IMG/VR virus record: IMGVR_UViG_2700989508_000011
DNA: 5,857 nt
Source: a virus
Lineage: Duplodnaviria > Heunggongvirae > Uroviricota > Caudoviricetes
Reading direction: 5' to 3' (one strand)
Part shown: positions 1 through 3,006 of the stretch, piece after piece
Layout of the letters: each line of letters begins with the position of its first letter
Numbering within the stretch: the stretch's first letter is position 1
Program-made: the position numbers and the translations under genes
The notes under the pieces: generated by a model
The model's input: the letters and a program-made list of their open reading frames with translations, nothing else
Told to the model about the DNA's origin: nothing
Database searches by the model: none

Positions 1-2089
1 CATAACTGTTAATTGCCCTGACTGTCAGGGTGTATTCCCCGAGCGGCAGACCACTGAAACGATGCTCTGTATCCGCAGTGATGGCGGTGGTCACCAGACG
101 GCTGTCTTCTCCGCTTCCGCTGGTCAGGCGCAGACTGAAGCGCACACCCTTCACCACCCGCGGCGTGTCCCATTTCGCCTGTGCCAGATACTGACCGTCA
201 GCTGCGCTCACCTCCACCGTCAGGTGCTGCACTGCCGGAGGGATGACGCTGTTCAGGGTGCCTGACTGCGGCTCAAAGCTGGCCCCGTTATCCACGATGG
301 CTTCCTTTTCCGGTACGTGCTGCACCGCCGTGATGGCAAAGGTGCCGTCCGTGTTTTCCCGGATGGAGACACAGCGGAACAGGCGACGACGCAGTGACTG
401 CAGGGAGAGTCCCCATACACCGTATGTCTCCACACCATCAGGCAGGGTGCTGACCTGTATCCGGTCCGGCGCGGGGTGTGCGGTGATGGCCACGCTCACC
501 GGCTTACCGCTGCCGTTAATCAGGTTCACCGTGGCGGCACCTGTCTCCGGCAGGGTCACCTCACGGTCCAGTGTCAGGGTGCGGCTGGCGGCATCAATGG
601 ACAGGACACGTCCGCCGGTCAGGGTCCCGGCATAGTCGTTATCACAGATTTCAATAATGTCACCGGGTGTGTGCCGCAGCCCCTGAGACCCGAGCGTGAA
701 ATCCACCGTCTGCGTTTCCAGCAGTCCGGTCTTTATCACCCACAGTCCGGCACGGTGGGCCTGACCGCGGCTGGTACAGCCGAACGCGTCCATCTTCAGC
801 AGGTTGCGTCCGTAGCGCAGTATGGCTTCCGGGTCTTCCACCAGTTCCGTGGAGGTCTGCCAGCCGTTCTGCGGGTCGGTGTAATTCACCTCCACCGCCG
901 TGTGCCGGTCCTTCAGGGCACTGAAGCTGTAGCGGAATCCCACGCCGTTATCATCCACCACCACATCGCTGTTGGTGTACGGCCACACCACATCCGACGG
1001 GCGGTCCTGAACGAACGTCAGCGTCTGGCCGTTCCATACCGGCATACAGCGCATCGCCGAGCAGAAATCACTGAGAACGTCCCACGCCTTACGCTGTTGT
1101 GACAGGTACGCATTAAAGGTCATCCGCGGCTCTGTGCCCCCGAAACCATCCGGGACCGTCTGGTCGCAGTACTGCCCGATGGCATACAGCGCCCACTTGT
1201 CAACATCCGCCGCCACCAGACGTTTTCCCATGCCGTAGCGCGGGTGAGTCAGCATGTCCCACAGGCACCAGGCCGGGTTGTTGCTGTATGCCGGTTTCAG
1301 GCTGCCGTCCCAGATGCCGCTGTACGTGCGTTTTTCCGGGTCATAGTTTGACGGTACCTGGATGATGCGACCGCGGATATGGTAGTTCACCGTCATCTGC
1401 TGACCGCCAAACTGCTCCGCATCCACCTGCAGCCCCACAATCGCCGTGTTCGGGTAGCACTGTTTCACATCGATGATTTCGGTGTATGACGACCAGAGCG
1501 TCTTATTCTGCAGCTGGTCCGAGGTGCTGTCCGCTGTCTCCCGGACCATCCGGATGTTAAAAGGACGGGGAGGCAGATTACCCAGAATCACCGACGCCAG
1601 AAACTGCGAGGTGGTCTTGCCGTTAATGGTGACATCCTTTTCCGTCACCCAGTTACCGTTACGCTGTAACTGAATCAGCAGTCGGACAGAAGAGGGATTA
1701 CGGTCGCCCTTTGAGGTGGTCTCCAACAGTGACTGCACCCCGAAGGTGACCCGCAGGCGGTCAATGTTCGCGGACGTAATGGTGCGCGTCACCGGCTTTG
1801 CCTTCGTCACTTCCACGCCCAGTGCGGTTTCAGATCCGGAGGACTCAAAGCCTTCCGGTGGTGTCTGCTCCTGCTCCCCGGCACGCCAGACCGCGGTCAC
1901 ACCGTGTATCACGGGATTGCCGTCCGTGTCCGTCAGTGGGGTTTTGTTCACCAGAATACTCTGCAGTCCCTTCACCGGACCTTCTATCGGTCCCTCACCA
2001 ATCGCATCAATCACGCTCATCATCTGCGTGGACTTAAGATTGTCCTTTGCCTCTACCGGCGTGTGCGCCTTGCCGCCACCTTTGCCCAT
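1..2089 (-). CDS. J: Tail tip / host-specificity protein J (central tail fibre), N-terminal ~696 codons; C-terminal receptor-binding part lies beyond the left edge
   Basis: Minus-strand ATG at 2089-2087 (plus 'cat'), preceded by a G-rich SD-like 'aagggtgagaca'. My translation starts MGKGGGKAHTPVEAKDNLKSTQMMSVIDAIGEGPIEGP..., which I recognise as the lambda gpJ N-terminus. At the window start the same frame reads ...RFSGLPLGEYTLTVRAINSY. The track shows no minus-strand ORF ending at 2089, consistent with an open frame to the window edge (the track omits ORFs whose stop lies outside the window). I did not translate every codon. Confidence 0.88.
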   Translation of the reverse strand, partial: MGKGGGKAHTPVEAKDNLKSTQMMSVIDAIGEGPIEGPVKGLQSILVNKTPLTDTDGNPVIHGVTAVWRAGEQEQTPPEGFESSGSETALGVEVTKAKPVTRTITSANIDRLRVTFGVQSLLETTSKGDRNPSSVRLLIQLQRNGNWVTEKDVTINGKTTSQFLASVILGNLPPRPFNIRMVRETADSTSDQLQNKTLWSSYTEIIDVKQCYPNTAIVGLQVDAEQFGGQQMTVNYHIRGRIIQVPSNYDPEKRTYSGIWDGSLKPAYSNNPAWCLWDMLTHPRYGMGKRLVAADVDKWALYAIGQYCDQTVPDGFGGTEPRMTFNAYLSQQRKAWDVLSDFCSAMRCMPVWNGQTLTFVQDRPSDVVWPYTNSDVVVDDNGVGFRYSFSALKDRHTAVEVNYTDPQNGWQTSTELVEDPEAILRYGRNLLKMDAFGCTSRGQAHRAGLWVIKTGLLETQTVDFTLGSQGLRHTPGDIIEICDNDYAGTLTGGRVLSIDAASRTLTLDREVTLPETGAATVNLINGSGKPVSVAITAHPAPDRIQVSTLPDGVETYGVWGLSLQSLRRRLFRCVSIRENTDGTFAITAVQHVPEKEAIVDNGASFEPQSGTLNSVIPPAVQHLTVEVSAADGQYLAQAKWDTPRVVKGVRFSLRLTSGSGEDSRLVTTAITADTEHRFSGLPLGEYTLTVRAINSY

Positions 2090-2121
2090 TGTCTCACCCT
2101 TTACTGTGATAACTGTTCACG

Positions 2122-2154
2122 CACAAAAACAACAGGCATCCCGGAGGATGCCTG
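2122..2154 (-). terminator. Rho-independent terminator-like hairpin on the minus strand, 33 bp upstream of the J start
   Basis: Perfect 9-bp GC-rich inverted repeat CAGGCATCC / GGATGCCTG (plus 2133-2154) with a 4-nt loop. On the minus strand it is followed directly by TTGTTTTTGTG (plus 2122-2132). Confidence 0.5.
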
Positions 2155-2192
2155 TATCATCACTGAATAAAAATTCTGAATATCTTCACATT

Positions 2193-2220
2193 TTCACAAA
2201 CTGACTGTGGCGCTAATAAT
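2193..2220 (+). promoter_or_regulatory. Candidate sigma70-like promoter on the plus strand (antisense to the tail operon)
   Basis: TTCACA (2193-2198; 5/6 to TTGACA), 16-bp spacer, AATAAT (2215-2220; 5/6 to TATAAT), in a ~29% GC stretch; predicted start near 2227. Hexamer match only, no experimental support. Confidence 0.25.
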
Positions 2221-2279
2221 TTCTCTGCGTTAATTTTTTTGTCGTGACATAAGAATAATTCTCTATAGTTAATCTTTGT
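2214..2279. repeat. Imperfect direct repeat, two ~26-bp copies with ~38-bp period, in the I-J intergenic island
   Basis: Copy A 2214-2240 'taataatttctctgcgttaattttttt'; copy B 2252-2279 'agaataattctctatagttaatctttgt'. Shared core AATAATT(T)CTCT...GTTAAT. Aligned by eye. Confidence 0.4.
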
Positions 2280-2286
2280 ATCTCTT

Positions 2287-2320
2287 CCCGCAGCTCCGCA
2301 ACTCTGCGGGATTTTTTTAT
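2287..2320 (+). terminator. Rho-independent terminator-like hairpin on the plus strand, abutting the 3' end of gene I
   Basis: Stem CCCGCAG (2287-2293) / CTGCGGG (2304-2310) with a 10-nt loop, followed by A-TTTTTTT-ATTCTTTTT (2311 onward). On the minus strand the same hairpin is followed by 'aagagataca', so it is terminator-like only for rightward transcription. Confidence 0.5.
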
Positions 2321-2325
2321 TCTTT

Positions 2326-3006
2326 TTACCCCTGCCGCCCGATAACCACCACCTTCCCGCCACCACCTTCATCACGGGTGCTGATGTCCTGGGAGATTCG
2401 CCGGGAGCCAACCAGCATTTCACCGTAAGGCACCGGCATCGGGTTCCCCTGGGCAATCATGTTGTCCAGTGACGAAAAATACGTGTTCTGTTTACCGTTA
2501 TCCGTACTTTTGTACTCCGGCGTCTTTGCCTTCGGGGCCAGCATCTGGGCCACACCGCCCAGTATCATGCTGGCCCCCAGTGAAAACAGCATCGTGGTGG
2601 CAGAAAAACCGCCGGCTGCCAGGGCTGAACCCCATAACGCCATCGTTGCGCCGGCGGTGAAGAAAGAGCCCACGATGGCTGCCGCCCCCAGCACAATCTG
2701 CAGTCCGCCTTTCCCTGCACCGGCCAGTCGCGGCACAATGTGGATGACCGTTCCCTCACCCAGCTGTTCGTGAAGACGGGCGTACACCGCCTCCGGTGCC
2801 GTGTCCTCACCGCGAATACGTATCTGGTACCAGCCTTCGTTCATCTGACGGCGGAATCCCGGCACCTGTAACGACAGCGCCCGGATGGCTTCCGCTGCCG
2901 TGTTCACGTACAGGCTGAGGCGGCGGCCAAATCGTTGCAAATCCCCGTGAAGGCAGATGCGTGCCAGTGGCGGTGACGCCAGGCTGAATGCGTTCGTCGT
3001 TGCCAT
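2326..3006 (-). CDS. I: Tail tip assembly protein I (lambda gpI family)
   Basis: 226-aa ORF starting MATTNAFSLASPPLARICLHGDLQRFGRR..., with a Gly/Ala-rich hydrophobic middle and C-terminal ...DEGGGGKVVVIGRQG. I recognise this as lambda gpI (223 aa). Stop TAA at 2328-2326. The start overlaps the 3' end of K by 103 nt in another frame, as I recall for lambda. Confidence 0.9.
   Translation of the reverse strand: MATTNAFSLASPPLARICLHGDLQRFGRRLSLYVNTAAEAIRALSLQVPGFRRQMNEGWYQIRIRGEDTAPEAVYARLHEQLGEGTVIHIVPRLAGAGKGGLQIVLGAAAIVGSFFTAGATMALWGSALAAGGFSATTMLFSLGASMILGGVAQMLAPKAKTPEYKSTDNGKQNTYFSSLDNMIAQGNPMPVPYGEMLVGSRRISQDISTRDEGGGGKVVVIGRQG

Follow-up and report, generated by a model that had tools for sequence, protein, structure and literature searches.

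Why does a lambdoid phage carry 236 bp of AT-rich DNA without any plausible open reading frame (ORF) between its tail genes I and J? The question is raised by the virus record IMGVR_UViG_2700989508_000011 (class Caudoviricetes), of which we analysed a stretch of 5,857 nucleotides, hereafter the window, that carries lambdoid tail genes on its minus strand, from an incomplete H through M, L, K, and I to the opening 696 codons of J. The stop codon of I lies at 2326-2328 and the ATG of J at 2089-2087, and the I-J gap therefore spans 2090-2325. At a probability of about 85%, we read this island as a non-coding moron, namely a self-contained small RNA (sRNA) gene between I and J of a lambdoid prophage of the Shiga toxin (Stx)-phage type, antisense to the late operon and allelic to PasB of enteropathogenic Escherichia coli (EPEC) and to EcOnc22, EcOnc23, and EcOnc24 of enterohaemorrhagic E. 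coli (EHEC). The locus has already been detected experimentally in EPEC and EHEC prophages and so is not new; the window copy is a divergent allele. Transcript, size, and Hfq dependence have been established by others for the homologues and would extend to the window allele by homology. Our own additions are modest and comprise the link between PasB and EcOnc22-24, the breadth of alleles, a conserved CRP-like site, the strand assignment of a second hairpin next to J (hairpin 1), and the sodC-F variants found at the same junction.

The gap had been singled out in a first-pass annotation made from the letters alone, and its length of 236 bp was confirmed. The G+C content of about 29% given there for the island was reproduced (0.292 over 2161-2280, 0.377 over the full gap) against a background of 0.609 in I and 0.601 in J. 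The corresponding gap of phage lambda, given there as about 60 bp, is exactly 60 bp (I end 15444, J start 15505) and is therefore not comparable in size; gaps of 54-60 bp are found in lambda, 434, 21, and HK630-type phages, and gaps of about 236-245 bp or longer in phages with an I and a J of at least 90% identity to those of the window. Scans recovered the two terminator-like hairpins in opposite orientations and the promoter-like element that had been described. The direct repeats are also present, although short and imperfect, with 82% identity in the best pair (D1). Likewise, no plausible ORF was found in the gap, where the ORF list has nothing but ORFs of 20 aa and others that enter I or J out of frame. 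The proposal of a moron with its own promoter and terminator stood in so far as the insert is absent from lambda-type phages and a sodC-F moron occupies the same junction in relatives; the part that did not stand is the inclusion of the J-proximal hairpin, which does not belong to the insert. The island consists of two modules, the hairpin at 2122-2155 and an sRNA cassette at about 2165-2325 that lies on the plus strand, antisense to the tail genes.

The probable sRNA cassette and its homologues in EPEC and EHEC

PasB is an 83-nt RNA encoded on the minus strand of prophage PP6 in EPEC O127:H6 E2348/69 (NC_011601.1, 1466343-1466261; Table S6 in Pearl Mizrahi et al. 2021, PMC8550237), and its existence was confirmed by northern blot with the probe AATCCCGCAGTGATCGCGGAGCT (PMC8550237). 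The plus strand of the same genome carries I, up to position 1466255, and J, from 1466496 onwards. This puts PasB between the two genes in PP6 and antisense to them, and 6 nt separate its 3' end from the I stop. Over its full length, the window gap can be aligned with this PP6 gap. The level of PasB drops in an hfq deletion mutant (log2 fold change of -6.8 and -2.4 in two conditions), and ligation and sequencing of interacting RNAs (RIL-seq) recovered 37 partners, 30 of which are coding sequences (CDSs) or 5' untranslated regions (5'UTRs), with PasB mostly the second RNA in the chimeras (1820 vs 258) and with a U tract of 7 nt (PMC8550237).

The second set of homologues consists of EcOnc22, EcOnc23, and EcOnc24, homologous peaks of Hfq cross-linking and cDNA analysis (CRAC) in the Sakai prophages Sp15, Sp14, and Sp11, respectively (Table S2 in Tree et al. 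2014, PMC4104026), which give a northern band of about 85 nt that is destabilised without Hfq (PMC4104026). Without correction, all three peaks fall 22-84 nt inside I-J spacers of NC_002695.2, antisense to the tail genes. Two sRNAs of the same strain show a shift between published peak and Rfam position, namely AgvB (1941783-835 vs 1941920-1941981) and AsxR (1268494-542 vs 1268629-681), and the coordinates of Tree et al. therefore lie about 140 bp below those of NC_002695.2 and refer to an older version of the record. When shifted by about +140 bp, the EcOnc22 peak covers 2902856-2902916, inside the sRNA predicted in the Sp15 spacer (2902848-2902926), and the EcOnc42 peak near 2.92 Mb becomes intergenic, matching the paper, whereas unshifted it lies inside a CDS. 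Given this offset, the face-value placement of EcOnc22-24 over hairpin 1 on the plus strand was rejected. Independently of the present locus, the EcOnc positions of Table S2 are misplaced on the current Sakai RefSeq record unless corrected (offset checked at 1.27 and 1.94 Mb).

From these positions we infer that EcOnc22-24 and PasB are alleles of one gene, a link of our own that is stated neither in the table of Pearl Mizrahi et al. 2021 nor in Zhu et al. 2026. Both sets of RNAs were detected in uninduced cultures (PMC8550237, PMC4104026). The suggestion of the first-pass annotation that the cargo is non-coding and may be an sRNA locus is thereby borne out, in that the island is homologous to loci that yield an Hfq-dependent RNA of about 83-85 nt from the same strand; the Hfq-interaction data to which it pointed exist for the homologues, as RIL-seq for PasB and as CRAC for EcOnc22-24.

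Relatives of the island were collected by two routes, a pattern scan of IMG/VR (120 loci, 53 unique islands, 45 sRNA alleles) and a search through protein I that is blind to the spacer (80 loci). Hairpin 1 is present as in the window at 47 of the 80 protein-I loci, which amount to 41 unique sequences including that of the window. With these at hand, the predicted gene can be divided as follows.

2240-2318, plus strand: putative sRNA of the PasB/EcOnc22-24 family, placed by homology; 79 nt if its 5' end corresponds to that of PasB, the 5' end being uncertain within 2227-2244
2251-2259, plus strand: (ARN)3 run AAG-AAU-AAU (AAGAAUAAU), which could bind the distal face of Hfq; (ARN)≥3 is found here in all 41 unique alleles
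2260-2277, plus strand: pyrimidine-rich block followed by a near-invariant UAAUCUU (2270-2276), with low column entropy; candidate seed
2286-2318, plus strand: Rho-independent terminator from scan and folding, with the stem UCCCGCAG/CUGCGGGA (CCCGCAG/CUGCGGG), a 10-nt loop, and U7

The sRNA of the window folds at -18.2 kcal/mol (z = -3.2) with the UCCCGCAG/CUGCGGGA hairpin and U7 at its 3' end. The plus-strand terminator match of the scan covers 2295-2310 and extends to a longer stem (2286-2293/2304-2311) followed by T7, and the U-run ends 7 nt from the I stop codon. At no more than two mismatches, the terminator is present at all 80 loci fetched via protein I. Its arms are near-invariant, with one 5'-arm substitution in one of the 17 distinct variants among the 41 unique islands, and its loops vary; because the arms hardly change, no covariation is available.

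Every one of the 41 unique alleles keeps the (ARN)≥3 run, the pyrimidine block, UAAUCUU, and the terminator arms. The mean pairwise difference is 0.39 at the 5' end of the sRNA and 0.40 in the stretch just before the terminator, compared with 0.21 in the ARN run and core and 0.17 in the terminator, and the alleles are visibly mosaic. Fixed putative Hfq contacts combined with a changeable pairing region are the layout expected of an Hfq-dependent base-pairing sRNA, and for PasB the seed has been placed in the single-stranded region just ahead of the terminator (Zhu et al. 2026, bioRxiv 10.64898/2026.05.13.724894). Most probably, host RNA polymerase would start at about 2227-2244 in a lysogen and stop at CCCGCAG/CUGCGGG-U7, 7 nt short of the I stop, to give a product of about 80-90 nt. 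This RNA would bind Hfq through its U tail and (ARN)3 run, and its conserved single-stranded stretch ahead of the terminator would base-pair in trans with mRNAs of host or prophage.

The search for carriers that the first-pass annotation had in mind found the island in 149 phage records, mostly of Stx-converting phages and nearly always unannotated, and, at 80% identity or more, in 1645 complete E. coli genomes out of 5426, with seven copies at most in a single genome. The strains CAU16175 and EH031 have islands that are 100% identical to that of the window. The longest word common to the window sRNA and PasB is 15 nt. A census of PasB within E. coli was made by blastn with a word size of 28 (Zhu et al. 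2026) and would therefore omit alleles like that of the window. In a scan of contigs for species range, the cassette was found in E. albertii and in two short contigs, and the latter, exact matches to the cassette pattern in a 460-bp contig of Parendozoicomonas haliclonae and a 3408-bp contig of Streptomyces flavalbus, are most likely contamination by E. coli or phage DNA.

An Rfam scan, also proposed at the outset, gave nothing for the island at E ≤ 1. The only matches at that threshold in the window are the archaeal C/D-box snoRNAs sR32 and sR28 (1970-2027, minus strand), which lie inside the coding sequence of J, reach 18 and 16 bits where the gathering scores are 40 and 39, and are due to chance. 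Scans of the I-J regions of E2348/69 and Sakai at the gathering threshold gave no match either. As the gene is annotated in neither RefSeq nor Rfam, it is invisible in routine annotation.

Candidate promoter elements and a CRP-like site upstream of the predicted sRNA

Three elements precede the sRNA in the window.

2172-2193, no strand assigned: putative CRP-like site AATTCTGAATATCTTCACATTT, a sequence match with the core TCTGA-N6-TCACA at 2175-2190
2193-2220, plus strand: upstream promoter-like element TTCACA-N16-AATAAT, matching 10 of 12 positions, with a predicted start near G2227
2231-2236, plus strand: downstream candidate -10 element TAATTT (TAnnnT), with a predicted start near 2241-2244

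Taken singly, each promoter or terminator match is only mildly above what shuffled sequence yields (0.8 promoters and 0.6 terminators expected), and their weight therefore comes from conservation in relatives. Both -10 candidates are kept across the unique sequences. The upstream one (2215-2220) is conserved as nATnAT and its -35 element is not conserved; in the downstream TAnnnT, positions T1, A2, and T6 are invariant and the middle bases are free (94 unique sequences). The counterpart of TAnnnT in E2348/69 is TAGTGT, 7 nt ahead of the PasB 5' end derived from RNA-seq. Moreover, TAnnnT is kept in relatives that carry sodC-F at the junction, where the upstream element is replaced.

The core of the CRP-like site matches TGTGA-N6-TCACA at 9 of 10 positions and is the sole match in the window at one mismatch or less. 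Its half-sites and flanks are invariant in the 41 unique islands, with only two central spacer bases that vary, and it falls largely within the least diverse segment of the region (2156-2192, with a diversity of 0.073 vs 0.084 in the I flank and 0.111 in the J flank). The distance from TCACA to T2231 is 40 nt in 91 of the 94 unique sequences. A start directed by TAnnnT would put the centre of the predicted site at -60.5, close to class I geometry. In spacers of 338-344 bp, homology to the window starts just left of this site.

An invariant site at fixed spacing upstream of a promoter suggests activation by cAMP-CRP. Spf (Spot 42) is repressed by CRP. It shows the opposite trend to PasB in the data set in which PasB is higher in overnight static lysogeny broth (LB) than in exponential Dulbecco-modified Eagle medium (DMEM) (Pearl Mizrahi et al. 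2021, PMC8550237), a contrast that fits CRP activation of PasB. Altogether, we give cAMP-CRP control of the predicted sRNA promoter even odds.

Hairpin 1 and the I-J junction as a cargo site

The J side of the gap and the two flanking genes contain the following features.

1-2089, minus strand: 5' part of tail gene J (tail tip, host specificity), 696 codons and open to the window edge; from translation, with the Pfam domains FNIII-A_GpJ, Phage-tail_3, and Ig_J and matching RefSeq names
2093-2101, minus strand: putative Shine-Dalgarno-like sequence AAGGGUGAG of J within the J leader (2090-2121), read off the sequence
2122-2155, minus strand: hairpin 1, intrinsic-terminator-like, with a 10-bp stem (2132-2141/2146-2155), the loop UCCG, and then UGUUGUUUUUGUG; from terminator scan, folding, and pairing across variants
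2326-3006, minus strand: tail assembly gene I, 226 aa; from ORF and translation, with the Pfam domain Lambda_tail_I

Hairpin 1 belongs to the tail-sense RNA. The terminator scan reports it on the minus strand as a hairpin at 2155-2132 followed by TGTTTTTGTG; the tract 3' of it reads UGUUGUUUUU, and it stands about 33 nt ahead of the J start. It folds at -19.3 kcal/mol (z = -4.2). Across 12 variants, minus-strand pairing holds in 99.2% of the cells. A CG<->UA double change occurs at one pair, and eight cells are G.U, which on the plus strand would turn into A.C mismatches. In every variant the minus-strand fold is the more stable of the two.

At the matching position, the 60-bp spacer of lambda has a hairpin and U-rich tract of its own. 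In lambda (15445-15504) and in 434 this is the tail-sense hairpin GAAACCGCC-UGCG-GGCGGUUUU, directly ahead of the J ribosome-binding site, and the record of phage 434 labels its I-J hairpin 'terminator' (320-339 of the fetched stretch). In the 338-344-bp spacers, hairpin 1 and the J leader are swapped for another module and the sRNA cassette is retained. Because it has a counterpart in lambda and 434 and is replaced independently of the cassette, hairpin 1 is a separate junction module and not the second terminator of the insert. It would represent an older feature of the I-J junction, an intrinsic-terminator-like structure in the tail-sense RNA just before J. We know of no function assigned to a terminator within a Q-antiterminated late operon; hairpin 1 might act as a terminator for unmodified polymerase, as an insulator of J in the lysogen, or as a stable 3' end left by processing. 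We also considered, and found unsupported, a second sRNA transcribed from the minus strand and ending at hairpin 1: no minus-strand promoter rose above the scan threshold, the best hand-picked candidate matched 8 of 12 positions and is not conserved, and Tree et al. 2014 (PMC4104026) list no Hfq peak for this strand at hairpin 1 in their table.

The spacers of the loci fetched via protein I fall into five classes.

234-245 bp: 17 of 80 loci, layout as in the window
Length not measured (J with a GTG start): 30 of 80 loci, layout as in the window
338-344 bp: 17 of 80 loci, sRNA cassette kept, hairpin 1 and J leader replaced
295 bp: 1 of 80 loci, sRNA promoter region and terminator kept, without hairpin 1
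848-851 bp: 15 of 80 loci, sodC-F gene and sRNA body

The longest class encodes a Cu,Zn superoxide dismutase of 175 aa (Pfam Sod_Cu, E = 3.9e-32) with the AASC lipobox known from sodC-F in prophages of O157:H7. In the example locus L139, the spacer spans 1688-2538 and the sodC-F ORF lies on the minus strand at 2405-1878. The gene is oriented as the sRNA, antisense to the tail genes; after it come a terminator of its own and then the body and terminator of the sRNA. Only at window position 2223, just past the upstream -10 element, is homology to the window regained, and this class therefore lacks the CRP-like site and the upstream promoter and retains TAnnnT; the sRNA of sodC-F phages might be made from TAnnnT or by read-through from sodC. 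Such polymorphism of the I-J spacer is what a moron insertion site looks like and supports the argument from architecture in the first-pass annotation, and the wider search shows the spacer to be a mosaic across relatives.

Several further observations concern the junction and its neighbours. The 338-344-bp spacers (e.g., phage vB_EcoS-783R2, 301-642 of the fetched stretch) keep the cassette from about window position 2165 rightwards, and their substitute module has a hairpin of its own, AAACCCCGGTATC..GATACCGGGGTTTTC. The two copies of direct repeat D1, CTCTGCGTTAATTTTTT (2223-2239) and CTCTGCGGGATTTTTTT (2302-2318), flank the sRNA module at a spacing of 79 nt, equal to the module length, and the left copy sits exactly where the homology of the sodC-F class to the window resumes; D1 could be a footprint of recombination or duplication, or its 5' CUGCG could compete with the terminator 3' arm for CGCAG. 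In the Sakai prophages Sp15 (1-2191 of the fetched stretch) and Sp14, J is annotated as two overlapping 'host specificity' CDSs next to an intact sRNA cassette. J is probably disrupted there, and an intact cassette beside a disrupted J would fit retention of the sRNA in decaying prophages. Elsewhere in the window, the ORFs of I and K overlap by 103 nt in different frames (2904-3006), as K and I do in lambda (14773-14875), and the K protein has JAB and NlpC/P60 domains, which is ordinary for this set of tail genes.

Alternatives and comparison with known systems

A number of points weigh against the identification of the island as a PasB/EcOnc22-24-type sRNA gene or against parts of it. Identity of the window sRNA is no more than 72% to PasB and 79% to the Sp15 EcOnc22 sequence, and with a pyrimidine block of UUCUCU instead of CUCCUU it may have other targets; the literature gives neither a target nor a phenotype for PasB or EcOnc22-24. 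For the offset applied to the EcOnc peaks there are measurements at 1.27 and 1.94 Mb, and at 2.9 Mb the support is only indirect. The -10 element of the window is AATAAT and not TATAAT, although the expressed Sakai allele also has AATAAT, and the consensus-like promoter predicts an RNA of about 92 nt, compared with 83-85 nt for the mapped homologue and in northern blots. As to CRP, the match taken singly is weak, since 0.18 matches are expected by chance and 32 of 200 shuffles gave at least one; the centre of the site lies at -60.5 (from TAnnnT) or -44.5 (from AATAAT) instead of the canonical -61.5 or -41.5; and the contrast between LB and DMEM is confounded by growth phase.

A more ambitious version of the sRNA reading would make the I-J cassette a carbon-status switch, in which a CRP-activated Hfq sRNA has its 5' and seed parts shuffled among co-resident prophages, each allele with its own target set, and in addition couples to, or interferes with, the tail genes of its own and related phages through antisense pairing, with the junction as a hot spot for cargo. 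We regard this as unlikely, though as the least unlikely of the departures from the plain reading.

Somewhat less probable still is a mainly cis-acting antisense RNA that alters processing of the late tail transcript and the I:J ratio upon induction or infection, or that is itself titrated by late mRNA. The whole gene does lie within the I-J spacer on the opposite strand, perfectly complementary to the intercistronic segment, the cassette is always at this junction in the 80 protein-I loci, and the sense hairpin next to J suggests RNA-level events there. The RIL-seq partners of PasB, however, are mostly CDSs and 5'UTRs of other genes, as befits an Hfq sRNA that acts in trans; the RNA overlaps neither the I stop nor the J ribosome-binding site; lysogens, in which the sRNA was detected, do not express the late operon; and lambda-type phages build tails without the cassette. 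In addition, when the sRNA body was checked for trans pairing with the J, I, K, L, M, and H start regions, it did no better than shuffled sequences; the one exception, a loopy duplex with I (p of about 0.03, one of six tests), was dismissed.

An anti-sRNA or sponge like AgvB and AsxR has a slightly smaller chance again; the first-pass annotation had mentioned anti-sRNAs as a class without committing to them. The ARN run common to all alleles would suit such a role, a variable 5' part joined to a conserved 3' part is the layout that Tree et al. (PMC4104026) describe for anti-sRNAs, and the PasB allele has a C/A-rich stretch, AACAAAAACAAC. The window allele, on the other hand, has no C/A-rich mimic of the GcvB type, most PasB partners are mRNA segments, and the Rfam models of AgvB and AsxR find their Sakai targets and have no match in the window at E ≤ 1. 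The prophage position differs as well as the RNA size: AgvB lies at the PR' moron site (Tree et al. 2014, PMC4104026), and a position between I and J, considered for it at first, was rejected on the strength of that paper. The window holds tail genes H-M-L-K-I-J only, which is not the PR'/moron-CDS site of AgvB and AsxR. Identity of the window sRNA with AgvB or AsxR is thus ruled out by site, size, and the lack of a model match.

Very improbable is a non-functional remnant, an AT-rich recombination scar with promoter- and terminator-like sequences that arose by chance. The near-chance level of the single matches and the mosaic structure of the region would agree with this, but the homologues have documented transcripts, which already contradicts it for them; across 41-94 unique sequences, neighbouring bases vary and the terminator arms, TAnnnT, ARN run, and CRP-like half-sites do not; and in part of the spacer diversity is below that of the coding DNA on either side. 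That the island encodes a small protein is the least credible of all, as the 20-aa GTG ORF on the minus strand (2101-2163) spans hairpin 1, the longer ORFs that run out of the gap are out-of-frame overlaps with I or J from TTG or GTG starts, and the indels among alleles would break any frame.

If the island is an sRNA gene of the PasB/EcOnc22-24 type, as we favour, two separate reports are joined into one allelic family at a fixed prophage position, of which the published PasB census covers only one allele class. The CRP-like site offers a testable hypothesis for when the RNA is made, and the alleles, in which a variable 5' part is combined with fixed Hfq-binding features, amount to a natural experiment from which seed and targets might be found. 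The I-J junction, moreover, emerges as a cargo site able to hold sodC-F.

Among known systems, CyaR is a CRP-activated, Hfq-dependent core sRNA, and the window sRNA would follow the same logic of induction at high cAMP if its CRP site is real, without any sequence relationship. AgvB and AsxR (Rfam RF02702 and RF02703) resemble the PasB family in being prophage-borne, short, and Hfq-bound, in their ARN motif, and in a 5' end that varies where the 3' end is conserved; unlike the window sRNA, they measure 51-60 nt and form convergent pairs downstream of PR'. The I-J spacers of lambda, 434, and 21 share with the window a tail-sense hairpin and U-rich tract just before the J ribosome-binding site; they differ in being about 60 bp long and in lacking the antisense gene, and since the hairpin sequences are unrelated the correspondence is positional, with homology not demonstrated.

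The morons sodC-F1 and sodC-F2 of O157:H7 lambdoid prophages (D'Orazio et al. 2008, PMC2569942) occupy the I-J junction in the same orientation as the sRNA cassette; in contrast to the window, where they are absent, they carry protein-coding cargo that replaces hairpin 1, the CRP-like site, and the upstream promoter. The moron label agrees with what the window holds at the level of sequence, namely extra DNA that is absent from lambda-type phages and has a putative promoter and terminator of its own and an atypical composition. EcOnc22-24 match the window in junction and, after coordinate correction, in strand; the Sakai alleles differ in their 5' part (UGAUGCCUGAAAAAUAACUCCAUAAC), in a -35 region that reads TCCGGC, in a J leader that is 8 nt longer, and in the GTG start of J. 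PasB sits at the I-J junction like the window sRNA, on the same strand with respect to the tail genes and equally far from the I stop, and its flanks, CRP-like site, -10 elements, ARN run, UAAUCUU-type core, and terminator are homologous, even though its 5' part and pyrimidine block differ (GUCGUGACAUAAGAAUAAUUCUCU against CCCGAGUAACAAAAACAACUCCUU) and its -10 element is TATAAT. The window cassette has what marks this family: a place in the I-J spacer, antisense to the tail genes, with its predicted 3' end next to the I stop, homology, and a 3' stem-loop followed by poly-U.

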